Positions 19,013 through 44,611 of a stretch of DNA of 64,000 nucleotides are shown here, piece after piece. How positions within the stretch are numbered: the first letter of the stretch is position 1; every line of letters begins with the position of its first letter. Source of the stretch: a virus; IMG/VR virus record IMGVR_UViG_3300037755_001058, positions 1 through 64,000 of that record. One strand, given 5' to 3'. The notes under the pieces were generated by a model. The model was not told the origin of the DNA. It did no database searches and was given only the letters and a program-made list of their open reading frames with translations. A program made the position numbers and the translations under genes.

Positions 19013-19244
19013 ATGACCATCGATGACTTGATCGCGCAACTCGAAGAACTCAGGGAGGCAGCGCCTTAGTGGTGGCGACACCGAGGTGCTCGTCGCTACT
19101 CAACGGGAATGGCCGTTGGCACTCGTCGTGGAGCGGCTGTCCGTGGTGACGGAGGACTGCGATGAGCCGGCGGTGTGGATCGCCACCGGAGGCCATCCAT
19201 CGTGGCGGCGTCCGTACGCTCCGAAGGAGGCGTGGGATGAGTAG
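19013..19244 (+). pseudogene. small phage gene split by a +1 frameshift at CCT-TAG-T
   Basis: MTIDDLIAQLEELREAAP* continues in the +1 frame as SGGDTEVLVATQREWPL...PYAPKEAWDE*, ending across the next ATG. Confidence 0.6.
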
Positions 19245-19782
19245 GGATCCGTTCCGGTTGGCTCATGGGATCGATCCGTCGTCCGAGTACGAGTGGGCCG
19301 ATCTCAGGGCTAAGGTGGTTCGTGAGGTTATCGACGGACTGTCTCCTCTGCTCCTGGCGCAGGAGATGGTGGGTTCGACTGGATCGCACGAAGCGGCTCA
19401 ATTTGAGCACCGGTGGCGTGTGACCCTCGCGTCCATGTTCCACGTCAGGACCAGACGCGAGCAGGGCCATCCCACTCTGTGGAGATTCCTCTACAGGTGG
19501 CCGTCTGTGGTCCAGGTGGCCGATGCATCGGTTCAGGAGATTCAAGGTGTCGTCAGACCCCTGGGACTTCAGGTGCGTCGCGGCCGTCTCATCAAGACCG
19601 CTGCGAGGCAGCACATCATGGGTGTTCGTCCGTGGCCGGCCGACCCTGATGTTCCCATGGCGGGGGTCGGCCAGTACGTCATGGACGCGTACAGGATCTT
19701 CGCACTGAAGGAGAACATCTCTACTGACGACAGAGAGCTGAGGGCGTTCGTAGCATGGAGGCTACGAAACAGGTCGGGGTGA
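19237..19782 (+). CDS. MBD4-like HhH-GPD DNA glycosylase (T:G/U:G mismatch)
   Basis: SPLLLAQE...WRVTLASMFHVRT...LWRFLYRWPS...RPLGL..RR...GVGQYVMDAYRIF...DDREL closely parallels the MBD4 glycosylase domain. Confidence 0.85.
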   Translation: MSRDPFRLAHGIDPSSEYEWADLRAKVVREVIDGLSPLLLAQEMVGSTGSHEAAQFEHRWRVTLASMFHVRTRREQGHPTLWRFLYRWPSVVQVADASVQEIQGVVRPLGLQVRRGRLIKTAARQHIMGVRPWPADPDVPMAGVGQYVMDAYRIFALKENISTDDRELRAFVAWRLRNRSG

Positions 19783-29770: not shown

Positions 29771-30090
29771 TGGCCGACCCTTCCGAGGGGGTGAGGCGTT
29801 TTTTCGTGAACGCCGCCCAGCGCATATCGAGGCGACCCGTCGCCAAGGCAGCCTACGCGGCTACCTTGGTCGTCGGGCCGTTCAGTTTCAGTGTGGCAAC
29901 CAAAGGTACCGGGTCATCCTCATTGATTCCGAAGATCGGAATGCCAACAGCGACCAGATCAGACTCGTGGACGTCAGCCGTACTAGCGCGGCCCGAAGAA
30001 CAACGACGTACGAGGCTGTCTCGAGAAGAACGTAGGGATAAGAAGAGGCGTAGAAAGGTTACCCGCGCCGCCAAACGGAGGAACCGTTGA
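29770..30090 (+). CDS. basic hypothetical protein
   Basis: Coupled to neighbours on both sides; Arg/Lys-rich C-terminus. Confidence 0.5.
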   Translation: MADPSEGVRRFFVNAAQRISRRPVAKAAYAATLVVGPFSFSVATKGTGSSSLIPKIGMPTATRSDSWTSAVLARPEEQRRTRLSREERRDKKRRRKVTRAAKRRNR

Positions 30091-30866
30091 ACGTTCAGGC
30101 CTGCGCCCCAAATGGTATCGATCTCGTCGACCTGCCTTCGGACCCTCAGGCCGATATGATCTCTCGCCAGAGGCGCTTCCAGGCTCGGGTATACGGAGAA
30201 GCCAAGCTGGCAGAGTTGCGCGATTTCGGCTCATCACGGCGCTGTGACGTACGGGCCGTGTTGCATCACCTAGACATGGGTGGTCAGGAGTGCTCCGAGG
30301 CCTGGGACATGGTCGAGGGTGGATGGAAACACCACAAGACCAATCCGCACGATCCTGACAAGCTCGAACTCATGATGGAGCTCGTCGATATCATGTGTTT
30401 CGCGCTGAACACGTACATCTACATGGGGGGTCAGCCTGAATCGGAACTCGTGGCGGCGGCCGTTGCCAGGAGCAAGGAACAGATGCGATACCCGAAGATT
30501 GGCCTCGACGAGGCATGGGTCATCGGGGCATCGAGCTGGGAGAGGAACGGCCCGAAGATGCGAGCCCTGTACGATCATGGCCGCGGTAGCCATGGGCGGG
30601 AGTGGACCAAGGAAGCCGCGACGCGCATCAACTTCCTCAGGGCACAGTTCTTCGACTCAGCAGCAACCATCAGGTACGGTCTGTCGAGGATGACCAAGGC
30701 CGAGCGCGAGACGTTTCCGCCGGCGTCCGGTTATGTCTACATCCAACTCGTTCCGTGGATCTGCGGTGCGGTTCAGGCGATCCCTGGAATGGGACTACAG
30801 GACCTGTACTCTGCCTTCGTGAAGAAGGACCAGATCAACAATGAGAGGCAAGATGCAGGCTATTAG
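30087..30866 (+). CDS. all-alpha NTP pyrophosphatase (dimeric dUTPase / T4 gp56 dCTPase-like)
   Basis: QECSEAWD..WKHHK, MELVDIMCF, C-terminal KKDQINNERQDAGY. Confidence 0.8.
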   Translation: MNVQACAPNGIDLVDLPSDPQADMISRQRRFQARVYGEAKLAELRDFGSSRRCDVRAVLHHLDMGGQECSEAWDMVEGGWKHHKTNPHDPDKLELMMELVDIMCFALNTYIYMGGQPESELVAAAVARSKEQMRYPKIGLDEAWVIGASSWERNGPKMRALYDHGRGSHGREWTKEAATRINFLRAQFFDSAATIRYGLSRMTKAERETFPPASGYVYIQLVPWICGAVQAIPGMGLQDLYSAFVKKDQINNERQDAGY

Positions 30867-32064
30867 CCTGGGGTACCAATCGCATCCGTTGGACGACCAG
30901 TTCTCTGCGATCACGGTTCGTTTGAACGAGGCGTCCGATGAGCACACAGCTCTCGGGACATGCATCTTCGCCGGAGGATTTTCCTTCGGAATGGAAGAGG
31001 CCGGGTTCACGGTGGCCGGTCATCTCGAACTTCCGGACCTGGCCCTCGGGTCTCACACCTCCAAGCAGAGGTGGCCGGTTGCCGTAGCCAGTCTCGATCT
31101 ATGGAAGGAGTACATCGATCAGCTGCGGGATAAGGACATCGTTCCAGATGTATTCTACGCCAATCCACCTTGCGTTGCTTACGCCGGTACTGGGAAGCAC
31201 GATGGAACGATGGATAGTCGTATGTGCTATACCAGGTACTGCGCGTACGATGCAGCCATGAGACTTCAGCCTGACGTCTGGATGTGGGAGCTGGTCGACG
31301 GAGTCATGCGAGACCGAGGATTTCTCGATGCGATGGCGTTCCGAGCGAAGTCCCTCGGGTACAGGTGCTACGCATTCCTTACATCATCGGCTATCCATGG
31401 TGGATACCAGGACAGGCGTAGATTCCACTTCGTTGCTAGCCGGTTCGAGCTAGACTTCGAGGATGTGTGGGCCAACGAGCCCGTTCCTCGTAGGACCGTG
31501 CACACCCTCTCAGAGGCGTTGGCGTCGGTGCCTGCAGGTTCTACCAACCACGAGACCGTGTATAGGGGAGCATTCCGATCGATCTTCCCGTTCTGCCCCC
31601 CGGGAATGCACCTTCGGGATGTGTCTGATGATGTCATGCGTGAGCACTACCGTCCACGTGGTACTGCGTGGACAGGCACGGGGAGACCTGGGTTCTCACA
31701 CACGCGTGCGAGGATGGACCGGCCATCCCCTAATGTCCTCGGAGGCCATACGATAATCCACCCCATCGAGAACAGGTACCTCACACCTCGTGAGTGCGCC
31801 GCTATCATGGGGTTTCCCCATGACTACGCCTTCAGCCACGGTGCTATGGCGTACGCTGAGATAGGCAGGGGGTTGTGCACCCACAACGCCGCGTTCCTGG
31901 GGAGGGTAGTCAAGAACGCTCTTGAGAGGCGCGTGCGTACGGTGCCGACCAGGGTTGACGACTCCTGGATGACAGTGGTAGACTGGCGCCGGAGGGCCAA
32001 GCCCCTTCGGCTGAAGATGACCGAAGCCGAAATCGAGGCTTGGTGGAGTGAGCGAGTTTCGTAA
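30853..32064 (+). CDS. atypical C5-cytosine DNA methyltransferase homologue (candidate carboxymethyltransferase)
   Basis: IFAGGF (I), NPPC (IV), ELV (VI), QDRRRF (VIII), RYLTPRECAAIMGFP (IX), AYAEIGRG (X, N replaced by R). Confidence 0.85.
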   Translation: MQAISLGYQSHPLDDQFSAITVRLNEASDEHTALGTCIFAGGFSFGMEEAGFTVAGHLELPDLALGSHTSKQRWPVAVASLDLWKEYIDQLRDKDIVPDVFYANPPCVAYAGTGKHDGTMDSRMCYTRYCAYDAAMRLQPDVWMWELVDGVMRDRGFLDAMAFRAKSLGYRCYAFLTSSAIHGGYQDRRRFHFVASRFELDFEDVWANEPVPRRTVHTLSEALASVPAGSTNHETVYRGAFRSIFPFCPPGMHLRDVSDDVMREHYRPRGTAWTGTGRPGFSHTRARMDRPSPNVLGGHTIIHPIENRYLTPRECAAIMGFPHDYAFSHGAMAYAEIGRGLCTHNAAFLGRVVKNALERRVRTVPTRVDDSWMTVVDWRRRAKPLRLKMTEAEIEAWWSERVS

Positions 32065-33043
32065 CACAATAACGTACTCCACCAGCCGCGATCGCATCCT
32101 TAGATCGTGTCCCAGGAAGTACTGGTACCACGTGTACGCATCTTGGCGCGGATGGTGGAGGCGTGGCAAGCCTCCGACTGATAGACGCGCAGAGGATACG
32201 TACCAGGCCAGGTTCTTCGACAATATCCCTGCCTTAACTGGTAGGATTGTGCACGACCAAGCGGCTAGGATGTTGAGAGGTGCTCAAGAGGGACGTCGGT
32301 GGGTGGACGCAAATGGCGTTGGACAGACGCTTCTGAGAAACACTCGATCTGATGCAGAGCACCGACTAAATGTGGCCAGGGGGCGTCGCTACGTCAACCC
32401 TAAGGTCAATACCAGACTCCTGGAGTTCGAGCTGGGGGGCGAGGTAGACGACTTCGATTTTTTTGATCGGGTACGAACGAAGACTCTGTCCATCGTTTCT
32501 CCGGATGAGTGCTGGAACGGAATGGAGGAACGAAGGAATCTGTTCCTCCATGCCATCACCAATGGGAAGAGCATCGTCCTAGTGGAGGACCTCGTAACAT
32601 ATCACGTCAACGGCGTGCAGGTCTGGTTGCAGGTGGACATGATGATGAGGTCTGACCACGATCCAGTGCATGACTGTGTGATCGTGGACTGGAAGACTGG
32701 TCGCCCAAAGCCTGAAGATGTCCATCAGGCAGAACTGTACGGTCACTGGGCGTGGATGAAGGGTTGGACCGGAGCTCAGGTGATCATGGCGTACCTAAAG
32801 AACGTTGACTCGGTGGAGCTCAGAGCCATCGAGATGAATCGTCACAGAGTGGTAAGTGCCGAAGCCAGAATCGCCAGGTTCATAGACGATATCCGGTCTC
32901 GCATCGTTGATGGCGATATTTTGAGGAACGAGCCGATAGAAGAGAGGTTCGAAGCCATTGGCAGCCCGGTTGGATGCGCTGTATGCGAGTTCCAGGCGAT
33001 CTGCGGGGCTGACGGAACGAAGCCGAGCTGGGTGGACCGTTGA
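32048..33043 (+). CDS. PD-(D/E)XK nuclease (RecB/Cas4-like)
   Basis: SCPRKY, VD...IVDWKTG, Q..LY, C-terminal CAVCEFQAIC. Confidence 0.8.
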   Translation: MSEFRNTITYSTSRDRILRSCPRKYWYHVYASWRGWWRRGKPPTDRRAEDTYQARFFDNIPALTGRIVHDQAARMLRGAQEGRRWVDANGVGQTLLRNTRSDAEHRLNVARGRRYVNPKVNTRLLEFELGGEVDDFDFFDRVRTKTLSIVSPDECWNGMEERRNLFLHAITNGKSIVLVEDLVTYHVNGVQVWLQVDMMMRSDHDPVHDCVIVDWKTGRPKPEDVHQAELYGHWAWMKGWTGAQVIMAYLKNVDSVELRAIEMNRHRVVSAEARIARFIDDIRSRIVDGDILRNEPIEERFEAIGSPVGCAVCEFQAICGADGTKPSWVDR

Positions 33044-33075
33044 TGGAAGTCGTGGTAAGTTAGGCTGTCGGAGGT

Positions 33076-34335
33076 TTGATGTACCCATCCGAGACACTCA
33101 AGCGGAACTGGTTCGCCCGGGAAGAGATCCAGGAGGTCCTGCGAGGTCTGGGACTTCCAGTGGCGATGGACAGCACACACGTCGTAGTGGCCGGCGTTGG
33201 TGATCTCACCAACTGGCTCGCCGCGTGTAGCGACGATCATGTCGCCGGTCTCCTTGGGATGACGGAGAGGTGGACTACCGCATTCAGGAATGCGTCCGCT
33301 CCGTTCTCTGTGCGACACCTCTCCTCTCCGGGTGTGTCGTTCAGGCACGGGGGACGGGCCGCGCTTCTCGATGGCGCGTGCATGTCGGTGACGTTCCCGA
33401 GCAGCGGTGCGGCATCGGATGGACCCATCGCATACGTCGTCCCGGTGCGGAAGCAGATGTTGAACACCCGCGCCGAGTGGGTGGAGCACGTGGCTCTGGT
33501 GCCGAAGAGTGCGTTCGGCCAGTGGACAGCGCTCTCGGGCGCCGTGGACATCGTCCAGCGCGAGATGAACGCGAGCTCACTCACGCTGCGCTGCTTCAAC
33601 GGCCCGGATGAGCGCATCCAGCCCATGAAGCTCGACTCCATCATCATGGAGTCCGGCCTCAAGGCTTCGGTCGTCGATGATGTGCTTGGGTTTCTCGGCA
33701 GGCGAGATGCGTTCGTATCTCGTGGACTTCCGTGGACCAGGAAGTACCTGTTCAACGGACCCCCGGGTACGGGCAAGACGAGTCTGGCCAGGTGGATGGC
33801 GACCGAGCTCGGCCTGCCGGCGTACACGTTCGACTTCACGGATCGGTTGGCCGACGGTCGTGATCTGAAGTACTTCATCGGCTGGGTGTCCAGGCAGGCT
33901 CCGGCTTTGGTCATCCTCGACGACTTCGAGAAGGTGTTCGGCGGGGACAACGCTACCGGCATCACCAGGCACGCACTTCTGACGATGATGTCTGGGATGG
34001 GTAGCCTGGACGGGCTGGTGTTCTCGGTCACCTGCAACTCCACCACCCCGTTCGACGGACCGATGAGGCGCAGGTTCGACGCCATCTTCGACGTCCCCCT
34101 TCCCGCTACGGAGGAGCGCCGAGTGTACCTCCACAGGATGCTCGATTCCGAGGGGATCTCGGGAGACTCCGTGGTGCGCCTGGCCGGACAGACCGATGGG
34201 TGGTCGTTCGACGACCTGCGAGGATTGGTCGCCACGGCACTCGGCCTGTCGGTGACGGCAGGTACGATCGCCGAACGAGACCTCTCCAGGGCGATGCGGG
34301 TCATGGAGCAGCGCCGGATGCAGCCGCTCGAGTGA
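33076..34335 (+). CDS. AAA+ ATPase (BCS1/FtsH-like AAA core)
   Basis: YLFNGPPGTGKTSLA, LVILDDFE, TCN, MRRRFD. Confidence 0.85.
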   Translation: MMYPSETLKRNWFAREEIQEVLRGLGLPVAMDSTHVVVAGVGDLTNWLAACSDDHVAGLLGMTERWTTAFRNASAPFSVRHLSSPGVSFRHGGRAALLDGACMSVTFPSSGAASDGPIAYVVPVRKQMLNTRAEWVEHVALVPKSAFGQWTALSGAVDIVQREMNASSLTLRCFNGPDERIQPMKLDSIIMESGLKASVVDDVLGFLGRRDAFVSRGLPWTRKYLFNGPPGTGKTSLARWMATELGLPAYTFDFTDRLADGRDLKYFIGWVSRQAPALVILDDFEKVFGGDNATGITRHALLTMMSGMGSLDGLVFSVTCNSTTPFDGPMRRRFDAIFDVPLPATEERRVYLHRMLDSEGISGDSVVRLAGQTDGWSFDDLRGLVATALGLSVTAGTIAERDLSRAMRVMEQRRMQPLE

Positions 34336-34343
34336 GGTGAGCA

Positions 34344-36083
34344 GTGGCAGACGAGTATGCTCGCGAGGATGTTGCCATCATCCTCGAGAAGACGAACCTA
34401 CAAATCGGGTACATGGAGGGCGAGGTTCCTGGGTCTCCACCCCAGGAGGACCCGTTCGTCGTCGGAGCTGGTCAGATCGTCGAGCCACCGGTGAATCCTA
34501 CGCGCGCAATGCGCGCGGTCAAGTCGAACGGCCATCTTGCTGCGGTGTGTGCAGTAGTGGCGGAGGGGTGTGCCGGAGTCCGGTACGAGATGGTTCCCAG
34601 GTTCAGATCGAAGTTCGTTCCAGGGATGGAGAACTTCGACGCGGCCAGGCCGGATACGTGGCCCCCTGAGGCTCGAGAGCAACGGCGGAAGCTCCAGGTA
34701 CTCGTGCAGGCGGGCTTCATTGGAAGAGGCGCGGAGTCCATCCGGTCCGGGTTCAAGGACCAGGAGCTCGATAGGATCATCCTGGGGTGGGGTGGAGTCC
34801 AGGTCCGGCGAGAACCGACGGTGCGCGGTGGTCCATCGGTTCCGCCACCGCGAGGTCTATCACGGTTCGAGGCCTGCAACGCTCGGTTCACACATCCAGA
34901 TAGAACTGCCACCATGACACCGGTGCCGGTGGCGTTGGAAGATGGTACGATCTGGTGGGTAGAGGAACCACGATTCTTCAGGAAGCTGCGAGTGCAGCTG
35001 GCCAACGGCCGCTACACCTGGTTCAAGGAATACGGTGATTGGCGGTCGATGTCGTCTCGTACGGGCAATCGTTCTACGGGAGCAAGGCGCAAGCCTTCCA
35101 TGGTTCCTGGCCAGCCAGGAACGTACACCCCCGGACAGGTTCCGGACGGACATCCGGCTGCGATCGAGGTGATGCACTGGAGGACCTCGTTTCCAGGAGT
35201 GTACCCGTACGGATGGTCGGCGTGGCATAGCGAGATGCGAGCGGCCGATGCGGCCGATGAGCACATCGGCCTCGTTCTTCAGTACCTCAAGTCTGGATTG
35301 CACTCGCTGGTGTTGGCTGCTAGCACCAGACCGTTCGACCAGGCTGCAGCACAGGCTGCCATCCAAAAGGTCGATGAGCTCGGTCGTGGTCGGAAGGGGT
35401 TAGGTTCCTTGGTCACTCTGGCCTTGGTGCCATCAGACAGCGACGCCAGGTCGCCGGCTGCGATGTTCGACAATGGGACTGCCGATACTGGGAAGCTGGT
35501 CCTCCATGAGATCAGTACGAAGCTTCCCGATGCGCTCCTCAGCAAGGACGGCCTTCAGGAATCCACATCAGTACGGTTCAGCAACGCAGAGCGGATCCCT
35601 GGGCTGTTGCTGGGACGGTCAGAGACGTACAACTTCGCCACGGCGTCAGCAGCATGGGCGGTGGTAAACCGACTGAGGTTTGGCCCTAGTCACGAGGAGC
35701 GCGAGTCGTTCCTCGATAGGTTCCTGATCGAGATGGGGATCACCTTCTGGCGCCTGGACGTAGTCTCACCTGAATGGGATGACAAGGAGCCATTGTCTGG
35801 CATTGCCTCCGTGGCCGGTCAGTACGGTGGTATGTCGGCCAACGATGCCATGATGATGTTGAGCGATGTCCTCAACACCGAGTTCAAGCCGTCGAAGGAC
35901 TGGTGGGGCGACGTTCCATTCGCGCTCGTCAACGCCATCATCAACGCAACGGACCCTTCGGGGCTGGCCAAGCTGATGGGAGTTGATCTTCCTGAAGACT
36001 TCAAGAACGTCGTTCCGCAGGTGGCCACACTGGCTGCCATGGTAGAGGAGCGTCTTACGGCGCTCGAGGCTCAGGTTCCGTAG
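34344..36083 (+). CDS. phage portal protein
   Basis: WFKEYGD, IEVMHWR...PYG, IPGLLLGRSETYNFATA resemble PBSX-type portals; 579 aa. Confidence 0.7.
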   Translation: MADEYAREDVAIILEKTNLQIGYMEGEVPGSPPQEDPFVVGAGQIVEPPVNPTRAMRAVKSNGHLAAVCAVVAEGCAGVRYEMVPRFRSKFVPGMENFDAARPDTWPPEAREQRRKLQVLVQAGFIGRGAESIRSGFKDQELDRIILGWGGVQVRREPTVRGGPSVPPPRGLSRFEACNARFTHPDRTATMTPVPVALEDGTIWWVEEPRFFRKLRVQLANGRYTWFKEYGDWRSMSSRTGNRSTGARRKPSMVPGQPGTYTPGQVPDGHPAAIEVMHWRTSFPGVYPYGWSAWHSEMRAADAADEHIGLVLQYLKSGLHSLVLAASTRPFDQAAAQAAIQKVDELGRGRKGLGSLVTLALVPSDSDARSPAAMFDNGTADTGKLVLHEISTKLPDALLSKDGLQESTSVRFSNAERIPGLLLGRSETYNFATASAAWAVVNRLRFGPSHEERESFLDRFLIEMGITFWRLDVVSPEWDDKEPLSGIASVAGQYGGMSANDAMMMLSDVLNTEFKPSKDWWGDVPFALVNAIINATDPSGLAKLMGVDLPEDFKNVVPQVATLAAMVEERLTALEAQVP

Positions 36084-36109
36084 TCCCGAATTGAGCGGAG
36101 CTACGAGAC

Positions 36110-36138
36110 TTGATGCAACCTACCATGAGTGTTATAAC
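36110..36138 (+). promoter_or_regulatory. sigma-70-type promoter for the MTase-NDT-kinase-TS-PolA operon
   Basis: TTGATG-17 bp-TATAAC with TG extended -10. Confidence 0.65.
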
Positions 36139-36157
36139 TCTTGTGGGAGGAGCAAGG

Positions 36158-37105
36158 ATGGAAGGATTGATCTGTCTACGAACTGGACAGCTCCGCAGAG
36201 GTTCTGACGGACAGTCAGAGCCAGTCGATCCCGATGGAATCGAGCACATGTGGGTGCCCATCATCGAGGGTGAGCCAATGTTCGTTCAGAACGTGGGCTC
36301 TACCTCTAACCCGCACGACCGAACCGACGATGGAAGGTTCGACAGATCGCACCTCTCCCCAGAGAGGGCATACAGGATCGGTCGCGATTACTTGGCGCAC
36401 TGTATTCGGTACGGTTTCCCGATGAAGGTGATCAAGGAGCACTTCGGGGCTGGGGTTCGCATCCTGGAGATGGGGTGCGGGAAGGAGATCCCGTTGTTCA
36501 GGACGCTCACCTGCGACCATTCCGCCACGAAGTACTACAAGCCGAGTCAGTACTGCGGAGTCGACCTGAATCCCATCAAGTACCATCCTCGAGTGACAGG
36601 CATCGAGAGCAAGGTTCTCTCGCGCGTCAACTGCGTGACCGAACCGGAGAAGGTGCCAGATTGGACGTTCGATCTGGTCTTGTCCTTCGAGGTCGTCGAG
36701 CACATGGACAAGCCCGACGGTGACAGGTTCCTCGATGCCATGGTGACCTTCGCCAAGCGCAAGGTCGATCGTGAGGGCAAGCCAGGAATGATCCTCCTGT
36801 CGACACCCGTGAACAACGGAACCATCGCCAAGAACCACATCTACGAGTGGCGGCGCTCGGAGCTGGAACGAGCCTGGACCAGGCGTGGGTGCAGAGTGCT
36901 CGAGCAGTACGGTACGTTCAGCAACCTCAGGGACCTGTTCGCGGCTATGGACGACACCGAGATCGAGGTGTGGAATCGCATGGCGGCCTACCACAGTCCG
37001 AACACGCTGTCATGCGTGTTCAGCGCCATGCATCCTGAGGCCGCTAGGAACGTGGCCTGGAAGATCGAGGTTGGTGAGGATTCACACCCTCTGGATGGAC
37101 GATGA
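36158..37105 (+). CDS. class I SAM-dependent methyltransferase
   Basis: RILEMGCG, YCGVD, FDLVLSFEVVEHM, LLSTP; GGAGG RBS. Confidence 0.85.
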   Translation: MEGLICLRTGQLRRGSDGQSEPVDPDGIEHMWVPIIEGEPMFVQNVGSTSNPHDRTDDGRFDRSHLSPERAYRIGRDYLAHCIRYGFPMKVIKEHFGAGVRILEMGCGKEIPLFRTLTCDHSATKYYKPSQYCGVDLNPIKYHPRVTGIESKVLSRVNCVTEPEKVPDWTFDLVLSFEVVEHMDKPDGDRFLDAMVTFAKRKVDREGKPGMILLSTPVNNGTIAKNHIYEWRRSELERAWTRRGCRVLEQYGTFSNLRDLFAAMDDTEIEVWNRMAAYHSPNTLSCVFSAMHPEAARNVAWKIEVGEDSHPLDGR

Positions 37106-37317
37106 GCAAAGGTACGACGTGTCTGGCGTGCCGGCACTGTTTCATGGAGCCGGACGATGACTTCTGCTGCGGGCATCCAGATGCCGGAGAGGTGGGGACG
37201 TACGTCAAACGCGCAGCGGTGGAGGGGGGACACTGCGGCCCAGAGCGGCCGAAGTTCGAGCAGCACCCGCTCCGCACCGCCGACGGCTACATGAAGCCGA
37301 TCGAGCGTACCACATGA
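37102..37317 (+). CDS. small Cys-rich protein
   Basis: CLACRHC...CCGH...HCG; ATGA coupling. Confidence 0.6.
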   Translation: MSKGTTCLACRHCFMEPDDDFCCGHPDAGEVGTYVKRAAVEGGHCGPERPKFEQHPLRTADGYMKPIERTT

Positions 37318-37733
37318 ATTACTACCTCGCAACCAAGCTCGAACGTGCCGAAGAAGCACGCGCAGTGCACTTCAACCTGGTTTCTCTCGATGTAGGCTTC
37401 AAGTGTACCTACGACTGGACAACCCATGGTTCGGTCAAGAACACCTCCAGGATCCGTCTGGCAGAGGTTGGACTGAACGAGACCAAGGGTGTCCTCAGTG
37501 CTGACGTGGTGATCGTTCTTCTTCCTGGAGGGCGAGGCACCCACGCCGAGCTCGGAATCGCGATCGGCGCTGGCAAACGAGTGATCCTTCATTCGAAGAC
37601 CGGCAATGAGTTCGAGGTCAACGACGGGACCTGTGCGTTCTACTGGCAGCCGCTGTGCGAGAGGGTCGTGGGAGACCTAACCGCGCTCGTCAAGTACCTC
37701 GCCGAGCCGGCCGTCGGGATGATCGTCAGGTGA
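37314..37733 (+). CDS. nucleoside 2-deoxyribosyltransferase-family N-glycosidase (NDT/DNPH1/MilB-like)
   Basis: YYLA...GVLSADVVIVLLPGGRGTHAELGIA. Confidence 0.75.
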   Translation: MNYYLATKLERAEEARAVHFNLVSLDVGFKCTYDWTTHGSVKNTSRIRLAEVGLNETKGVLSADVVIVLLPGGRGTHAELGIAIGAGKRVILHSKTGNEFEVNDGTCAFYWQPLCERVVGDLTALVKYLAEPAVGMIVR

Positions 37734-38611
37734 ACCCAGTCATCATCATCGAGGGTCCGGACGGGGTGGGCAAGACCACCCTGTGCGATGCCCTCGCACA
37801 GAGGTTTTTGGGCTCGTGTACGATTGTTCATTCCGTTCACTATGGCCCACCACCCGGTGATGAACCAACCGCCCTGTACTACTGGGACGAGGTGGACAAC
37901 ATCCTGGGCCTGGCGAAGTCCGGTCCAGTGATCGTCGACAGATTCCATGTTGGTGAGATGGTCTACGGCCCGATCCTCCGGGGTGATGCTGGGATGAGCC
38001 TCGACGAGGCTTGTGTCATCGACATGCGACTGCAGGCCATCGGCGCCATGATGTGTCATTGTAGGCTATCATCCACAGACCTATCGTCCAGATTGCTGTC
38101 CAGGGACGGCGGCCTTCCGGATTCTGCTAGCGGCGCCGCGCTGGGCCACAGCGAAGCCGTTCGGGCAGCGTTCTTTGGGATGACCAACGGAGTGCTTCCG
38201 TCGTCTTGGGAGCAGCTCGATATGACCTGGTACCCAGCACAGCTGGTTCCACTGGTGGCGCTGTCGTCGATCTCCCTGAGCACATTCGGTGCGGAGGTTG
38301 GGGTCATCGGCAATGTCAGGTCTCCACAAGTGCTCATCAAGGTGCCGAACTCTGACATGGATACCCTCTCGAGGGTAGTTCGAGGTTTGAGGTTGGCGGG
38401 GATGGTACGGGTCTCTGCCATCGAATATGATGACACCGATCTGAACTACACAACCGTATCTCGATCAGTAGCCATGGGGTTGTCACTGCATCGTACCCTC
38501 ATGGAAAGGGGGTTCAAGCTCCCGTCTGTCGTGTCCACCGACGCGACTCCGGAAGATATCGCCGAGGCAGTACGAACCGCCGTGGTGGCACAGCCCAGTC
38601 CGGAAGGATAG
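37730..38611 (+). CDS. dNMP/thymidylate kinase-like P-loop kinase
   Basis: IIIEGPDGVGKTT, IVDRFHVGEMVYGPILRG. Confidence 0.85.
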   Translation: MNPVIIIEGPDGVGKTTLCDALAQRFLGSCTIVHSVHYGPPPGDEPTALYYWDEVDNILGLAKSGPVIVDRFHVGEMVYGPILRGDAGMSLDEACVIDMRLQAIGAMMCHCRLSSTDLSSRLLSRDGGLPDSASGAALGHSEAVRAAFFGMTNGVLPSSWEQLDMTWYPAQLVPLVALSSISLSTFGAEVGVIGNVRSPQVLIKVPNSDMDTLSRVVRGLRLAGMVRVSAIEYDDTDLNYTTVSRSVAMGLSLHRTLMERGFKLPSVVSTDATPEDIAEAVRTAVVAQPSPEG

Positions 38612-38631
38612 ACACATGGGTGAGGTGAACG

Positions 38632-38886
38632 ATGAAGTTCAACGAGACGGCCATCAAGGCGCTCCCGGAGCGAAACCAGAGAACGATCATGAACCTCCTC
38701 AAGGAGTTGGAGGTCTCCCCGGAGCGGGGGACCTTCGTGATCAGTCGGGAGATCCTCGACCGGATGACCCCCCGGCAGCTCAGGACGCTCAGGCTGATGC
38801 GGCGCGTCCACGACGCGATGGACGTTCCGGTGGTGACACGAGGCCGTTCATCAATCAAGCGGAAGGAGTCGACCGCGACGGAGTGA
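38632..38886 (+). CDS. hypothetical protein
   Basis: GAGGTG RBS; TGATG coupling to the TS homologue. Confidence 0.6.
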   Translation: MKFNETAIKALPERNQRTIMNLLKELEVSPERGTFVISREILDRMTPRQLRTLRLMRRVHDAMDVPVVTRGRSSIKRKESTATE

Positions 38887-39842
38887 TGTCATTCGGCTCG
38901 ATGGATGAGCTCTTCAGGTTCGCCGTCTGGAAGTGCATCGAGCATGGACGGATGACCAAGCCGAGGGGCTTTTCGGTTCTGGAGATCGCCACTCCCACCG
39001 TGCTCACCTTGCGGGACGTCCACAGGCCGTTCATCCACTCGCCTCTGCGACGGCCCAACTACCGATTCGGCCTGGTAGAGGCCGCATGGATCGCAGCCGG
39101 ATCCGATCGTCTGGCCCACCTTTCCGCCGTGAACTCGCGGATGGCACGGTTCAGCGATGATGACTCCACGATGTGGGGTGGGTATGGGCCGCGCGTGATC
39201 GGTCAACTCGACCATGTCATCGAGACACTGCGGCGGGACAACGACAGTCGCCAGGCGGTCGTGACGACATGGCGACCCATGGTTCCACCGGTGGTGGGCA
39301 AGTCTCAAGGCCCGATTCGATCGGCTGGCCTGATGGCCACAGGTTCTGAGACGGTCAGTCCTACATGGGATGGCTACTCCTGGCGATCAAAGGACGTCCC
39401 GTGCACCGTAGCATGGCACTTCCAGTTGCGGAACGGCGGACTGGCTCTGACCGTATTCATGCGGTCTAACGACGTGTGGCTGGGGTTGCCGTACGACGTG
39501 CTGAGCTTCACCACCATCCAGCGTGTGGTTGCTTCTGCACTTGGTGTGAGACTCGGTGCGTACCACCATGTGGTCAGCAACCTTCATCTGTACCAGAAGA
39601 ACTACGAGGCTGCTGTCAGTCTCATGGGGGAGACCGTCTCCAACGAGACTGTGGTGATGCCACCATTCGATGACCTGTTCCTCGGTGGCAGTAGTGATTC
39701 GATGTCGACGATCTTCAACACGACTCTCAACGGCTCTCTCATCTTGATGTCCAAGCCCGGGATGCAGCCGTTCATCTCGGCGGTGATTGGATCCGATGAA
39801 TGGGACGACTTCCGAAAGCTCATGGCTGCTAACGGAAGGTGA
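38886..39842 (+). CDS. thymidylate-synthase homologue, Asp-type (dCMP methylase/hydroxymethylase-like)
   Basis: YGPR, DSRQAV, KDVPCT, MRSNDVWLGLPYD (Asp at the EcTS N177 position), NLHLY. Confidence 0.85.
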   Translation: MSFGSMDELFRFAVWKCIEHGRMTKPRGFSVLEIATPTVLTLRDVHRPFIHSPLRRPNYRFGLVEAAWIAAGSDRLAHLSAVNSRMARFSDDDSTMWGGYGPRVIGQLDHVIETLRRDNDSRQAVVTTWRPMVPPVVGKSQGPIRSAGLMATGSETVSPTWDGYSWRSKDVPCTVAWHFQLRNGGLALTVFMRSNDVWLGLPYDVLSFTTIQRVVASALGVRLGAYHHVVSNLHLYQKNYEAAVSLMGETVSNETVVMPPFDDLFLGGSSDSMSTIFNTTLNGSLILMSKPGMQPFISAVIGSDEWDDFRKLMAANGR

Positions 39843-39854
39843 TAGGATCTCAGT

Positions 39855-42242
39855 ATGCTCGACGCCTCCTACAGGATCTGTTGGTCTATCGACTCTTGGG
39901 TATCAACCCTTCGAGAGGCTCAGGATTCGTGGATAGTTGGGTATGACTTCGAAACCTGTCCTGACAGGTTCCATGCCGACTACCACCCGAAGAAGGGTCG
40001 CGATGGCAAGCCGAGTAAGTGCATCCCCAGCGCTCTTCGTCCTGAGGATGGAGCAAGAATCGCGGGCATAGCCATTTCATGGCTCGACACCAATGACCGA
40101 ATCAGGTCCGCGTACGCCCCCATCAGGCACGATCCACGGTTCGCGGGTGGTGATCAGCTTGACCCATTGCAGGTCTGTAAGGCATTCAGCGACTTCATCG
40201 CCGACAGGCCTGCTGATAGGTATCTGGTTGTTCACAATCTCATGATGGAGCTTAGTTGTCAGCTGGCCGAGAATATCGTGTGGCCGAAGGAGGGGCAACT
40301 TCACGACATTCAGATCGCGGCCAGGGTTCTCAACCGGGGAGTAGGATTCCAGGAGCTGATCGGCCTCAAGCCACTCCAGGCCGAGGTGTTGAAGCGAGAC
40401 ATGGGGTCCAAGAACGACTTGGATCGTTGGCTGAAGGCCCATAGGTTCAAGCCTGGTCGTGACATCTGGAGAGCCCCTGCACCATTGGCCGGTTGGTACG
40501 CTCAGGATGATGCCCGTGACACTCTCGAGATCTGTCTGAAGTGGTGGAAGCTGATTCATCAGCCACCTACCAGATGGTGGTGGCACAGGGCACCAGATAG
40601 GTCTCAGCGCCTGGACCTGTACGAACTCGAGATTCGTGCGGCTATTGAAGCCACAATCTCATGCATGCGTGGGACACGGTACGATGCACCCTTCTGCCGG
40701 CGTCAAGGACGCGCGGCCGAGGTACTGCAGTCCATCGCTCGCGACTGGATCCGAGGATACCTGGGAATGCCGGCCCTCAATCCAGGAAGCCAAACCCAGC
40801 TCAGAGGTGTTCTGTTCGGAACTCGGTTCAACTTCGAAGTCTCGCTCGAGCACACGACGGAGAGCTTCAAGAAGCTACCAGAGCGTGAACAGGCATCGAC
40901 AATAGCTGGGCATGGCAAGGCACCTCTGGTGAGTTACGCCTCTCTCGATGTTGATGCCCTCAAGTACTACGAGTCCAAGTACATAGAACACGCGGACCTG
41001 CTGTTCATGCTGGCTGTGTACCGTAAGTGCTCCACAGCCATATCGTGGTTCGATGACAGGGTCCTGCAGTTCGGCGTTCGTGGATCTCCAGATCCATGGT
41101 GGAATTCAGACGCTGGTTCGTACCTGAACTTGATGTTCCATCGTCTGAGGACGGTAGGGACCGGCCCGGGCCGGATGAGCAGTTCAGACTACAACGCTCA
41201 GCAGGTGCCGAAGCGACTGAAGATGCTGCTGAACGCAGCTCGGCTATTCCGTATCCTGGAGGAGGTCATGCACCCGTCCAGGCTAAACGGAATCATGTCG
41301 ATTCTGATTAGAGTACCGTGTAAGGAGGGCGACGAGGCGAAGGTCCTTGGACTGCAGCCTGGTGACGAGGTGGTGGACTTCTCCATCAGGAGAATGTTTA
41401 TCTCCAGGCCGGAGTTCAACCTCAGGACGTTCGACCTCTCACAGGTCGAGATGCGTGGGTTTGCCCATTACACGGGTAATCGCCTACTGTGTAACGGGTA
41501 CGGGCCACCGTTGGCTAACGTCGCGGCCTTAGCAGAGTTAGACGCCGTCCAAGCTCTCATGGAGGAACGTGAGCCTGATTGGTCGAATGTCGATGTTGAA
41601 CGCCATGTTAGGATGGAGGAGAACGAGTTCGACATTCATGGATTCGTCAGTGACGAGCTGAGCATCTCACGCAAGGGTGGAAAGGGGATCAACTTTGGGC
41701 TCGTCTACGGAATGGGTGAAAAGAAGCTGGCTCGAGGTCTAGGGTGGTCACCTGGCGACGGAAAGCTGTACCTAGCCAGATACCATGCCAAGTTTCCAGA
41801 GATCAGGCAGATGCAGGGAAAGATCGTCATCGCCCTGAGGAGCAGGGGATACGTCTTCGATCCATTCGGCAGACGTTACTACCTACCGGTGGCCAGAGCG
41901 TACGTAGGCTTGAACCGCCTGATCCAAGGGTGGGCTGCCACTGCGTTCAAGGTGGGATTCGTCAGGACCTCCGAGGTGTTCAGGTCACCAGGGTTCGGTG
42001 GTGGGTCTATCGATTCTGTCACTGGACTCCGTCGTAGTGATGGAGCCAGAATCCTCACCTGTATCCATGACGAGCAGATGGGTGAGATCCACAGGTCGCT
42101 CGATAATGTCAGGACTGACTGGGTGGTCAGGTCGTGCATGACGAACCTGTTCGGATTGAACGTACCGCTAGCATCGTCATCTGAACGTTCCGACGGCCCG
42201 TGGGACAATGCTACCGGTGTCTCGGCTAAACTACCAGTATGA
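39855..42242 (+). CDS. polA: family A DNA polymerase with 3'-5' exonuclease
   Basis: YDFET, HN, YAQDDA exonuclease; TGPGRMSS, FDLSQVEMR (A), RKGGKGINFGLVYG (B), IHDE (C). Confidence 0.95.
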   Translation: MLDASYRICWSIDSWVSTLREAQDSWIVGYDFETCPDRFHADYHPKKGRDGKPSKCIPSALRPEDGARIAGIAISWLDTNDRIRSAYAPIRHDPRFAGGDQLDPLQVCKAFSDFIADRPADRYLVVHNLMMELSCQLAENIVWPKEGQLHDIQIAARVLNRGVGFQELIGLKPLQAEVLKRDMGSKNDLDRWLKAHRFKPGRDIWRAPAPLAGWYAQDDARDTLEICLKWWKLIHQPPTRWWWHRAPDRSQRLDLYELEIRAAIEATISCMRGTRYDAPFCRRQGRAAEVLQSIARDWIRGYLGMPALNPGSQTQLRGVLFGTRFNFEVSLEHTTESFKKLPEREQASTIAGHGKAPLVSYASLDVDALKYYESKYIEHADLLFMLAVYRKCSTAISWFDDRVLQFGVRGSPDPWWNSDAGSYLNLMFHRLRTVGTGPGRMSSSDYNAQQVPKRLKMLLNAARLFRILEEVMHPSRLNGIMSILIRVPCKEGDEAKVLGLQPGDEVVDFSIRRMFISRPEFNLRTFDLSQVEMRGFAHYTGNRLLCNGYGPPLANVAALAELDAVQALMEEREPDWSNVDVERHVRMEENEFDIHGFVSDELSISRKGGKGINFGLVYGMGEKKLARGLGWSPGDGKLYLARYHAKFPEIRQMQGKIVIALRSRGYVFDPFGRRYYLPVARAYVGLNRLIQGWAATAFKVGFVRTSEVFRSPGFGGGSIDSVTGLRRSDGARILTCIHDEQMGEIHRSLDNVRTDWVVRSCMTNLFGLNVPLASSSERSDGPWDNATGVSAKLPV

Positions 42243-42252
42243 GGAGGACGCA

Positions 42253-42648
42253 GTGGCAGAAGGATCTGAGGATCTGGAGCGGAACAAGGAAGGCAAGAAG
42301 TGGAAGAACGACAAGCAGAGCCGCCGCGAGAACCATGTCATCATCGAGGAGAGGACGCTGCTGACCTTGGTGAAGTCGGGTAACGTCGACATCAGGGTCG
42401 AAGTCAAGCGTCACATGACCAAGAAGAATCAGATCCCGCAGAACTTCATCGACATTCGTGAGTGGTGGTACGCTCAAGGCCCGGACGAACCGCCCGTCCC
42501 GAAGAGGGCCGGGGTGATGCTACACCGTGAGCACATGGGCCGCATCATCGAGGCCATCTTGAAAGAGTTGGCCGTAGGTGAGATCAGCGAGGAGCACCTC
42601 GAGAGCATCTCGGTCGAGATAGAGAGGATCGGTGCCACCGAACCCTGA
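42253..42648 (+). CDS. PC4/p15-like ssDNA-binding protein
   Basis: FIDIREWWY...PKRAGVML matches the PC4 signature DIR.w...P.kkGi.l. Confidence 0.7.
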   Translation: MAEGSEDLERNKEGKKWKNDKQSRRENHVIIEERTLLTLVKSGNVDIRVEVKRHMTKKNQIPQNFIDIREWWYAQGPDEPPVPKRAGVMLHREHMGRIIEAILKELAVGEISEEHLESISVEIERIGATEP

Positions 42649-43033
42649 AACCAAGATCACGGTGACCATAAGGAAGCACCTCGAGACTCGAGGTGCACAC
42701 TTCGTGAAGCTGAGCGACAGTTTCACCCGTGGAGTTCCTGACGCCCTGGTCGTTACCAACCGACCTGTCATGGTAGAATTCAAGGTCGACAGGCTTGTTG
42801 GTACCGATATGATGAGGACGTATCGATCTCTAGGGTTGTCAGGCGCTCAGGACCACCACATCAAGGCCCTGCATCGACGGTGTCTGAACTCGGCGGCTGT
42901 TGTCACCAACACCGCCCGTGAGAATCGACTTCGGGTGTGGGTCCCACTCAACCCGCACGACGAGAAAAACGAGACGTACATCTGCATCGCCGAAGGATGG
43001 AGGGAGTTCGATCTGTTCATGGGAGTCGCATGA
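42632..43033 (+). CDS. VRR-NUC/Holliday-junction resolvase-like nuclease
   Basis: E.KI..., GVPDALV, MVEFK, LSGAQ. Confidence 0.8.
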   Translation: MPPNPETKITVTIRKHLETRGAHFVKLSDSFTRGVPDALVVTNRPVMVEFKVDRLVGTDMMRTYRSLGLSGAQDHHIKALHRRCLNSAAVVTNTARENRLRVWVPLNPHDEKNETYICIAEGWREFDLFMGVA

Positions 43034-43506
43034 TGGACAGCCCACCAGACCTTAGGGTGCTGTTGGTGGAGCTCGCCCGGGAGCTCAATCGGATTCGTCC
43101 TGAATCCGTTCTGGGTGCGGAGCTGGAGCGAGTATCCACGGCCAAGAACACGTTGTTAGTGCTCAGTCGTGTTCTAACGGCCATGGCCGTTCGGGCCGGC
43201 GTATCGAAGGATGCGGTTGACAGGGCCGTGGCCAAGGCCCGTCGGGCTAACGAACCCAAGCAGGGTGACATGTTCGTTCCTGTTGTGGTCAGCCCGGTTG
43301 CTGAGACGTTGACGACTACCACGGATTGGTACATCATCGCTGAGGTTGACCTGGTGCTTCTCAAGCACCGAACGGAACTTCCAGACTGGTTCGTTAACGA
43401 TTTCTGGCCAGGCTGCATACGGCGCGCGGCTCAGGGCCTGAGGTTGACTGATCGAGAGCGAGCAATTGCCGAGTACCAAGCCAGTAAGGCCAGGGGGGAA
43501 CGGTGA
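43030..43506 (+). CDS. hypothetical protein
   Basis: ATGA coupling. Confidence 0.65.
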   Translation: MMDSPPDLRVLLVELARELNRIRPESVLGAELERVSTAKNTLLVLSRVLTAMAVRAGVSKDAVDRAVAKARRANEPKQGDMFVPVVVSPVAETLTTTTDWYIIAEVDLVLLKHRTELPDWFVNDFWPGCIRRAAQGLRLTDRERAIAEYQASKARGER

Positions 43507-43967
43507 TGAGGCCATCTTGGGACGAGTACTTCATGCACATGGCGGTGATGATCTCCACCAGATCGACGTGTGACCGTCGCAGGGTGGGGTGCGTACTGGT
43601 GTCGCCTCAGTGGAATGTGGTGAGCACCGGGTACAATGGCTCGGCTCCTGGAACTGAACACTGTGACGATACGGGTCACATCATGCACGATGGGCACTGC
43701 GTTCGTACCATCCATGCCGAACGCAACGCCATCGCCCATGCTGCCAAGCGCGGAGTGGCTACCGACAGGACTACGGCGTACATCACCACGATGCCGTGTC
43801 CCACGTGCATCACCGATCTTGTTGCAGCAGGGATCAAGTCGGTGGTCTTCCTAGAAGGCTACCACGACGAGGAGGATCAGGTCACTCGTCGCTTGGCCGC
43901 GGCGAGCGGTGTCGTGCTGTACGAATACGACGGGAGAAAGACATGGGAAAGTCCGATCGACCGGTGA
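43503..43967 (+). CDS. dCMP deaminase
   Basis: RPSWDEYFM, RSTC.RRRVG, GYNG, HAERNAI, PCPTC. Confidence 0.92.
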   Translation: MMRPSWDEYFMHMAVMISTRSTCDRRRVGCVLVSPQWNVVSTGYNGSAPGTEHCDDTGHIMHDGHCVRTIHAERNAIAHAAKRGVATDRTTAYITTMPCPTCITDLVAAGIKSVVFLEGYHDEEDQVTRRLAAASGVVLYEYDGRKTWESPIDR

Positions 43968-44611
43968 GAATAGCTCTCATCGGAGCATCAGGTACTGGCA
44001 AGACCACGCTGGCAACCCACATCTCCACCACGTTCGGGATTCCCATGAACCCACACGGTTCCAGGTCCACAGCCGCCGCCATGGGTTTCGGTAGCCCGTA
44101 CGACGTGGATAGGGCATCGAAGCAGGCGTACAAGGCAGCCCTCATGGAGGGGTACGACCCCAAGTCGGCTGCACAAATCTCCATGATAGATTGGGCCACC
44201 TACGGCCGTGGTGGTACGGTACGACCGCTGTTCCAGACCGGTCTTCAGAAGACGAAGATAGAATGGGAACGTGCCAACCTCCCCTTCGTCACGGATAGAA
44301 CCACTATCGACGACCTGTGCTACGCCCTGCTACACTGCGTCGAGGTCGTGAACTATGAGTTTCTAGAGGCGGCTCGTGCGCACATGGCCATCTACGATCT
44401 GGTGGTGTACTGTCCCGCCTACGCATTCATCAACCTGGGTGACGACCCTGCGAGGCTGTCCAGTCGAGCGTACCATACCACATTCGACATCATGCTGTCT
44501 GGGTTCATGCACTCGTGGGACATCATGCGAAATGCGTTGGTGCTGGACACTTCAGACCTGAACTGGCGGTGTGAGGCTACTGAACTGGCTGTACGTGCCA
44601 TCGCGTCCTGA
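43964..44611 (+). CDS. P-loop nucleotide kinase (AAA_28-like)
   Basis: IALIGASGTGKTTLA, FVTDRTTID. Confidence 0.8.
   Translation: MRIALIGASGTGKTTLATHISTTFGIPMNPHGSRSTAAAMGFGSPYDVDRASKQAYKAALMEGYDPKSAAQISMIDWATYGRGGTVRPLFQTGLQKTKIEWERANLPFVTDRTTIDDLCYALLHCVEVVNYEFLEAARAHMAIYDLVVYCPAYAFINLGDDPARLSSRAYHTTFDIMLSGFMHSWDIMRNALVLDTSDLNWRCEATELAVRAIAS

Follow-up and report, generated by a model that had tools for sequence, protein, structure and literature searches.

Modification of pyrimidines in phage DNA is usually cast as either pre-replicative, carried out by thymidylate synthase (TS) homologs, or post-replicative, carried out by a methylase and a dioxygenase. The T-even pathway to 5-hydroxymethyl-deoxycytidine (5hm-dC), as known from T4, is formed by the dCTPase gp56, the dCMP hydroxymethylase gp42, the kinase gp1, and the deaminase Cd. 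In one survey, only six contigs contained both ThyS and 5mYOX. Here, we analyze the first 64 kb of the 91,853-bp IMG/VR virus record IMGVR_UViG_3300037755_001058 (completeness estimate 85%, G+C content ~60%), a stretch of 64,000 nucleotides referred to below as the window. In it, a gene for a T4 gp56-like pyrophosphatase overlaps the start of a gene for a homolog of DNA cytosine-C5 methyltransferases (C5-MTases), and a TS homolog with Asp at the substrate-selecting position, TS(Asp), is encoded downstream.

A preliminary description made from the letters of the window had treated the presence of pre-replicative and post-replicative cytosine-C5 machinery in one genome as a paradox and had offered three resolutions: an alternative thymidylate route from dCMP through 5mdCMP to dTMP, partial substitution of cytosine, or an MTase homolog that works on 5-hydroxymethylcytosine (5hmC). 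The two kinds of machinery do coexist in this genome, and their pairing needs explaining. What that description missed is that the MTase homolog is not a canonical methylase and that the pairing is a conserved gene cluster. We find that the MTase subfamily and the 5hm-dC pathway probably act together to make an undescribed cytosine modification.

Conservation of the gene pairing across viruses

No DNA-level relatives of the region were detected by megablast among 50,697 deposited phage records. Two phages are syntenic with the window phage across the whole region. One is L005, which is complete at 107.8 kb; the other is a contig of 100.7 kb that was binned in a Myxococcales metagenome-assembled genome (MAG). 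We refer to the three together as WIN-like phages. In all three, the gp56-like gene lies directly 5′ of the MTase homolog. When TS was used as the seed, a homolog of this MTase was found in 7 of 29 distant loci, where it is encoded directly upstream of a MazG/PRA-PH pyrophosphatase, a kinase, TS(Asp), and a deaminase. When the MTase subfamily was used as the seed, TS(Asp) was present within ~3 kb in 30 of the 31 loci having at least 3.5 kb of downstream sequence, with the gene order MTase-MazG-kinase-TS-deaminase-PolA (PolA being family A DNA polymerase). A second seed, assembled from MTase members that have Gln at a diagnostic pocket position (see below), returned TS(Asp) in 47 of 48 loci with enough downstream DNA.

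These synteny counts include related contigs: the first sample resolves into eight clusters at 70% identity, a single clade at that identity holds 33 of its 42 loci, and the number of independent lineages is about ten, not a hundred. The linkage extends across differing gene orders and phage types, including the WIN-like phages, the relatives L014, L017, and L020, and the eight clusters. Given that the pairing is conserved in the two syntenic phages as well as in over 100 further loci of viruses, the co-occurrence of the MTase homolog with the TS module is not due to chance, and it represents a conserved gene cluster rather than a peculiarity of one genome. Such recurrence in more than 100 viral contigs indicates that the pre-replicative pathway and the MTase relative probably work together, and the supposed paradox is a conserved design.

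A TS homolog with the signature of dCMP hydroxymethylases

The TS homolog reads RSNDVWLGLPYD and has Asp at the position of Asn177 in ThyA; its LPYD motif (D294; residues are numbered in the 408-aa open reading frame, ORF) aligns with PFN of ThyA and with the corresponding Asp of MilA and T4 gp42. According to published rules, Asp177 selects cytosine, and an acidic residue at the ThyA Leu143 position is characteristic of hydroxymethylases such as T4 gp42 and MilA (PMC13326640). The window protein has D260 at the Leu143 position, the third residue ahead of the catalytic Cys, where T4 gp42 also has Asp. The catalytic Cys (C263, equivalent to ThyA C146) is found in a DVPC motif and is invariant in 23 relatives, the equivalent of Asp169 is retained as D286 in an RSND motif and is invariant in the TS family, and a deoxyribose-type pair is formed by R212 in DSRQ (Arg126′) and S284 in RSND (Ser167). 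The same signature was present in all 28 distant viral TS relatives matched by a motif scan (28/28). The best Protein Data Bank (PDB) match of the window TS is MilA, a CMP hydroxymethylase (E 4e-24), compared with E 5e-14 for the best true ThyA, and identity to T4 gp42 is 21%. The protein bears the published signature of 5-hydroxymethyl-dCMP (5hm-dCMP) synthases, and its assignment as a dCMP hydroxymethylase is a well-supported prediction. Used as a single-protein query against viral contigs, the TS gave no match, and an alignment was needed to recover its relatives. In the WIN-like TS proteins, ~40 residues are inserted immediately ahead of the catalytic Cys (TS ORF positions 222-258).

Three other activities were considered for this protein and rejected. 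A ribo-CMP hydroxymethylase is suggested by the best match to MilA, whose preference for ribo-CMP is set by Lys133′ and Ala176 (PMC5175136); this was ruled out because the Arg and Ser determinants of the window protein are of the deoxy type. Asn at the ThyA Asp169 position is the mark of the new 5-hydroxy-dCMP synthases of the RB69 gp48 type (PMC13326640), and the window protein keeps Asp286 rather than Asn. A dCMP methyltransferase of the Xp12 type would be expected to resemble Xp12, which reads KNVPC where the window protein reads KDVPC, and no dihydrofolate reductase (DHFR) partner was found in the window phage or its complete relative G001.

The Tmk-like kinase encoded upstream adjoins TS in many loci, and close relatives include kinase-TS fusion proteins (P0013, 643 aa; P0020, 616 aa), which tie the kinase to the product of TS. 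The 90-residue N-terminal extension of the longest TS ORF is of low complexity and not conserved, and the source gene call begins after it, at 38886. From the kinase stop to the start of the conserved TS sequence, 270 bases (38616-38885) are open in frame and encode low-complexity sequence rich in Pro, Gly, and Asp; in relatives, linkers of this sort connect kinase and TS within a single protein.

The pyrophosphatase gave an E value of 3e-6 with T4 gp56 in pairwise BLASTP, and the two proteins have in common an ELVDI..F.LN helix and nearly identical C termini, NNERQDAGY in the window protein and NFERQDNGY in T4 gp56 (..ERQD.GY in both). T4 gp56 itself matches PF08761 dUTPase_2, the same family as the window pyrophosphatase. 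The reported overlap between this gene, with its NNERQDAGY terminus, and the start of the C5-MTase gene was confirmed: the TAG stop codon at 30864-30866 lies inside the MTase ORF, whose start is the ATG at 30841 or, more probably, that at 30853, giving an overlap of 26 or 14 nt, respectively. By sequence, the window pyrophosphatase is homologous to T4 gp56 and is predicted to hydrolyze dCTP and dUTP. No cultured-phage relatives of it were found by tblastn in the 50,697 phage records.

The content of the cluster was compared with the results of the MetaGPA study, in which selection was designed so that only fully cytosine-modified DNA survives. Families listed there as enriched include Thymidylat_synt, dCMP_cyt_deam_1, PRA-PH, DNA_pol_A, Thy1, PDDEXK_1, AAA_28, dUTPase_2, Nuc_deoxyri_tr2, and Thymidylate_kin, and nearly every gene class of the window cluster has a matching family among them; no methyltransferase family is among the entries of the enriched-family table that were examined. 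Taken with the sequence signatures, this context provides good support for predicted pre-replicative synthesis of 5hm-dC.

The TS gene is the only PF00303 gene in the whole genome. The window contains neither ThyA nor ThyX, as had been noted, and a look through the rest of the genome, which the preliminary description had called for, located a ThyX gene past the window end at 67835-69271 (L003:1315-2751; 478 aa, E 2.5e-36). It is a tandem duplication with two Thy1 domains in one chain, an arrangement also found in the complete relative G001 (481 aa), and the complete relatives G001, G004, and G008 also encode ThyX together with TS(Asp). DHFR was not found in this genome (G000) or in the complete G001, whereas the Xp12 control returned DHFR beside TS. 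Neither dCMP hydroxymethylase nor ThyX generates dihydrofolate.

A C5-MTase-fold subfamily with a remodeled pocket

The MTase homolog retains motif I (IFAGGF), a conserved Glu assigned here to motif II, an NPPC motif with the catalytic Cys, the Glu of motif VI, and the QxRxR motif as QDRRR. In an alignment of eight sequences, the invariant residues are G45 and G50 of motif I, E63, C111, E150, Q190, R192, and R194. In the canonical pocket for methyl transfer (PCQ / ENV / GN), the three positions surrounding the moved group differ: in HhaI numbering, Val replaces Gln82, Leu replaces Asn120, and Arg replaces Asn304, and the motifs of the window protein read NPPCV, ELV, and EIGRGL where HhaI has PC-Q, ENV, and the G-N of motif X.

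The CmoX enzyme of phage S-B43 (SpCmoX) likewise lacks Gln after the catalytic Cys, and Arg343 of the window protein (EIGRGL) aligns with R350 of SpCmoX (RVGRMV). In the crystal structure of SpCmoX, R350 contacts the carboxymethyl group/carboxylate of carboxy-S-adenosylmethionine (carboxy-SAM, Cx-SAM) (PDB 8YF3; PMC12783734), and the wild-type enzyme uses Cx-SAM only, whereas R350N is inactive with both donors (PMC12783734). The published definition of CmoX requires an SPPC motif, and the family profile of the window MTase homolog scores HaeIII and HhaI above SpCmoX 8YF3. The replacements suggest that the cofactor and target pocket has been remodeled in a CmoX-like way, with a resemblance to CmoX that is partial.

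Searched in full with HMMER, a set of 1.84 billion representatives gave 468 matches at E 1e-10 or better, and residues were tallied in the best 150 of the 468 (50% identity). Among these, the motif X residue is R in 63, K in 52, Q in 33, and N in none; the residue after the catalytic Cys is A in 119, S in 20, V in 6, and Q in none; motif VI begins with ES in 127, EL in 16, and EN in none; and PPC is preceded by N in 144. Judged from these motifs, the MTase homolog is a distinct subfamily without the canonical pocket. Two protein searches of the 50,697 deposited phage records recovered no clear member of the subfamily but only distant matches of 22-27% identity, one of which, from Nostoc phage N1, was checked and has canonical SPCQ / ENV / GN residues. 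Because the deposited phage collection gave no clear member, the subfamily seems to be known from metagenomes only.

Some relatives are fused to additional domains. In L014 (412-2739), the MTase domain is fused to PF20691, a TET-associated glycosyltransferase domain whose family we take to be one of 5hmC-DNA modifiers. Long C-terminal extensions are present on the homologs of L015 and L016, and the extension in L016 (5838-8450) is an unknown domain of ~340 aa that occurs as a stand-alone protein in the same gene slot in L006 (2560-4500) and L012. The Myxococcales-binned relative L082 (G016:C1:26128-28658) has two tandem MTase copies, an intact one and a second in which Tyr replaces the catalytic Cys (NPPY) and Lys is found at the Arg position (GKG).

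A proposed two-tier modification system and its alternatives

We propose that cytosine is modified in this phage in two tiers, in which T4-like formation of 5hm-dC is combined with C5 transfer of a bulkier group onto leftover cytosine, a proposal to which we assign a probability of roughly 0.37. It builds on the gene identities, diagnostic residues, and synteny described above, from which we infer what the enzymes do, how far cytosine is substituted, and which donor and target base are used. In the first tier, before replication, the gp56-like pyrophosphatase would convert dCTP (and dUTP) to the monophosphate, the TS homolog would hydroxymethylate dCMP to 5hm-dCMP, the Tmk-like kinase would start the phosphorylation of 5hm-dCMP, and PolA would incorporate the product; dTMP would be supplied by dCMP deaminase and the ThyX encoded past the window. 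In the second tier, after replication, the MTase homolog would act as a DNA cytosine-C5 transferase with a bulkier, probably anionic analog of S-adenosylmethionine (AdoMet), comparable to the use of carboxy-SAM by CmoX. The conserved Cys, Glu, and adenosine-binding motifs point to AdoMet-type group transfer onto a C5 that bears hydrogen, and, as with CmoX, the remodeled pocket points to a donor that is bulkier than methyl. The targets would be cytosines left unsubstituted by the first tier, a reading that implies incomplete substitution, in line with the second of the three resolutions offered earlier.

Several observations weigh against the two-tier proposal. The MTase homolog has NPPC rather than the published SPPC, and the Arg position is occupied by uncharged Gln in 33 of the best 150 relatives. 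A search of this genome and of the complete G001 and G004 recovered no CmoA, the source of Cx-SAM in the CmoX system, while its S-B43 control gave SpCmoA at E 2.5e-34, and none was found in more than 110 related loci (0 of 42 in the first seed and 0 in the Gln-type seed); by contrast, the CmoX survey counted 4257 CmoA sequences on the contigs of 5615 published CmoX candidates. The sole lead to a host is the Myxococcales MAG bin holding the related phage contig, and CmoA was detected in 6 of 21 genomes of that bacterial order but not in the phage-bearing MAG. Contigs with TS(Asp), PRA-PH, and deaminase are among those listed as enriched by the MetaGPA selection for full modification, which would leave no free cytosine, and near-constant linkage to the TS module is not what one would expect of an independent protective methylase. 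Two candidates for the missing CmoX partners were examined and rejected. The SAM methyltransferase encoded in the region has no TIGR00740 signal, has a profile matching Hen1, and occurs mostly in genomes lacking a PF00145 gene, which is not as expected for a CmoA-like Cx-SAM synthase, and the 579-aa protein considered as a CmoY-like ligase has no Pfam match and is placed by a protein atlas with portal proteins.

If cytosine is instead fully replaced, the MTase homolog may act on 5hmC itself, as the third of the earlier resolutions held, and we regard this as possible though doubtful. 5hmC would be flipped out, the Cys would add to C6, and the hydroxymethyl group would be exchanged or extended, whether through substitution of the hydroxyl via an exocyclic methylene intermediate, O-alkylation, or a group swap, to give a sequence-specific hypermodified cytosine. 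Such a substrate suits the nearly invariable linkage of the whole subfamily to TS(Asp) modules and the systematic replacement of all three residues flanking the C5 substituent; engineered methylases that derivatize 5hmC have replacements at the equivalents of Gln82 and Asn304. It is also favored by the fusion to PF20691 in L014, by the fusion of other relatives to a domain that stands alone elsewhere in the same slot, by the failure to find CmoA in the genomes and loci searched, and by the full modification that the MetaGPA selection, for the families listed as enriched, implies for such modules. C5-MTases are capable of derivatizing 5hmC in vitro with thiols and of adding aldehydes (PMC7176277). 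The adenosine-binding motifs, however, favor an AdoMet-like donor and a C5 bearing hydrogen, and no ligase or other tailoring gene was recognized beside the MTase homolog in the window. We know of no natural enzyme that acts on 5hmC in this way. The proposal of an ordinary orphan 5-methylcytosine methylase, in which the motif changes reflect neutral drift and the position reflects inherited early-gene order, draws on the frequency of orphan methylases in phages, the clear PF00145 membership of the protein with its catalytic Cys, Glu, and QxRxR, the ranking of HaeIII and HhaI above SpCmoX by its profile, and the concentration of 33 of the 42 first-sample loci in one clade at 70% identity. We consider it improbable, given that the linkage persists across differing gene orders and phage types, that R350N deprives SpCmoX of activity with both donors while the wild type accepts Cx-SAM only, and that Gln82, Asn120, and Asn304 occur in none of the best 150 representatives, a pattern that indicates a selected state and not drift.

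The remaining resolution, in which the TS product would serve mainly as a precursor of thymidylate, or in a variant of 5hm-dUMP, through the deaminase encoded in cis, would leave the cytosine of the DNA unmodified before replication and make the MTase homolog the sole cytosine modifier. Xp12-like phages use TS(Asp) together with a deaminase encoded in cis to derive dTTP from 5mdCTP, and in vivo some deaminases of this kind turn 5hmdC into 5hmdU (bioRxiv 10.1101/2024.12.05.627091). A deaminase accompanies TS in most of the loci analyzed here. This route is nonetheless very unlikely for the window phage because the genome encodes ThyX past the window and yielded no DHFR; in addition, ThyX is present in the complete G001, G004, and G008, the TS has the hydroxymethylase signature with Asp at the 143 position, where it differs from Xp12, and with Asp169 retained, and the gp56-like pyrophosphatase implies depletion of dCTP.

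Gene content of the region

The genes listed in Table 1 are all on the + strand. The dCMP deaminase, second kinase, and Asp-type TS that the preliminary description placed downstream of the MTase homolog were all identified there.

Table 1. Coordinates and best family assignments of genes in the window
Gene product	Coordinates	Strand	Family matches
T4 gp56-like all-alpha NTP pyrophosphatase, predicted dCTPase/dUTPase	30087-30866	+	PF08761 dUTPase_2 E 1.4e-8; phrog_173
C5-MTase-fold enzyme, NPPC[A/S/V] / E[S/L]V / [R/K/Q] subfamily	30853-32064 (longest ORF from 30841)	+	PF00145 E 3.8e-19
PD-(D/E)XK nuclease, directly 3′ of the MTase homolog	32048-33043	+	PF12705 E 1.1e-8
Unknown 579-aa protein	34344-36083	+	No Pfam or PHROG match
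Hen1-like metal-dependent class I SAM O-methyltransferase	36248-37105 (probable start; longest ORF from 36110)	+	Methyltransf_23
NDT/Rcl/MilB-like nucleotide N-glycosidase-fold protein	37314-37733	+	PF05014 E 7e-5, below curated cut-off; phrog_12607
Tmk-like P-loop nucleotide kinase, predicted hm-dCMP kinase	37655-38611 (real start probably near 37730)	+	PF02223; phrog_761
Asp-type TS homolog, predicted dCMP hydroxymethylase (5hmdCMP synthase)	38886-39842 (longest ORF from 38616)	+	PF00303 E 7.8e-18
Family A DNA polymerase (PolA), directly 3′ of TS	39855-42242	+	PF00476 E 7e-27
dCMP deaminase, ComEB-like	43503-43967	+	PF00383 E 1.2e-25; TIGR02571 E 4e-40
Second P-loop kinase, AAA_28	43940-44611 (probable start; longest ORF from 43796)	+	PF13521 E 3e-9; phrog_2107

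The PD-(D/E)XK nuclease gene occupies the same position in L005 and G016. Between it and the SAM methyltransferase gene are genes for an AAA ATPase and for the 579-aa protein, which the atlas places near phage portal proteins with a score of 0.97, yet which is encoded among replication genes and is conserved in L005 and L080. The order of TS followed by PolA is common to most related loci, the dCMP deaminase is found alongside TS in 20 of the 29 TS loci, and the P-loop of the second kinase is located after Met49 of the longest ORF.

A profile built for the Hen1-like protein from 10 phage homologs has HENMT1 and the bacterial and plant Hen1 proteins as its best PDB matches (E 1.6e-11), and the ExxEH...H metal-binding motif is kept. 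The gene is found upstream of the (MazG-)kinase-TS genes in ~14 of the 29 TS loci, in the same slot as the C5-MTase homolog, and one possibility for its substrate is a hydroxyl of the modified nucleotide. PF00145 genes are missing from the near-complete genomes in which it occurs. The NDT-like protein has the catalytic motif GTHxELG, which as GTHxE(L/I)G is common to it and the MilB hmCMP hydrolases, its only PDB matches, at a nonsignificant E of ~0.6. Human DNPH1 removes 5hm-dUMP, and by analogy the NDT-like protein could remove 5hm-dUMP formed by deamination of 5hm-dCMP. The NDT-like gene is absent from L005.

Further genes of the window were also noted. A single 884-aa chain (46812-49466) combines a GHKL ATPase (HATPase_c) with a TopoVI-A/Spo11 Toprim domain, resembles Topo VIII, and is 65% identical in L005, and in a 954-aa protein (25596-28460) a zinc ribbon and a Toprim primase are fused with an MCM-type P-loop helicase. 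A small candidate glycosylase of the HhH-GPD type (19162-19782) gave weak matches to PF00730 (E 0.004) and MutY (E 1e-4); a genome containing C5-modified cytosine would be well served by a glycosylase that acts on G:T or G:hmU mismatches.

Significance and comparison with known systems

Modified bases shape the resistance of phages to restriction and CRISPR. The finding that a distinct methylase-fold subfamily is nearly always encoded with the pre-replicative module suggests a combined pathway and, probably, a new modified cytosine. Tentatively, this metagenome-only C5-MTase-fold family, tied to 5hm-dC synthesis, may use 5hmC or an undescribed AdoMet-type donor to carry out an undescribed hypermodification, an outcome that we hold to be possible rather than likely. 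A family of this kind would provide a natural parallel to the "atypical" 5hmC chemistry that to date is known only from engineered methylases in vitro; CmoX and engineered M.MpeI and M.SssI are already in use as tools for mapping epigenomes.

Among described systems, the Xp12-type dCMP methylase resembles the window system in having a TS-fold enzyme with Asp177 and a neighboring deaminase, but Xp12 has Asn three residues before the Cys and DHFR beside TS, where the window phage has Asp, ThyX, and no detectable DHFR. The phage clusters of C5-MTase, TET/5mYOX, and glycosyltransferase similarly tie a C5-MTase-fold enzyme to 5hmC chemistry, and the L014 relative is fused to a TET-associated glycosyltransferase domain; however, no Tet_JBP gene was found in the four genomes searched, and 5hmC here would come from the nucleotide pool. 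CmoX of Synechococcus phage S-B43 is, like the MTase homolog, a phage-encoded protein of the C5-MTase fold with Arg at the Asn304 position and a small residue at the Gln82 position. The window protein differs from it in two motifs, with NPPC in place of SPPC and ELV in place of ENV. SpCmoX is no nearer to the window protein than HhaI or HaeIII are, and some relatives of the window protein have Lys or Gln at the Arg position; neither CmoA nor CmoY was found, and the linkage is to TS(Asp) instead. The T-even 5hm-dC pathway shares with the window phage a gp56 homolog, a TS-fold enzyme with Asp at positions 143 and 177, a nucleotide kinase, a dCMP deaminase, and a separate thymidylate synthase for dTMP. 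The window proteins are nevertheless very distant from their T4 counterparts, as seen in the low identity of TS to gp42, no glucosyltransferase was recognized, Td is replaced by ThyX, the kinase is of the Tmk-like type and in relatives is sometimes fused to TS, and the gene set includes a C5-MTase-fold enzyme and a Hen1-like methyltransferase.

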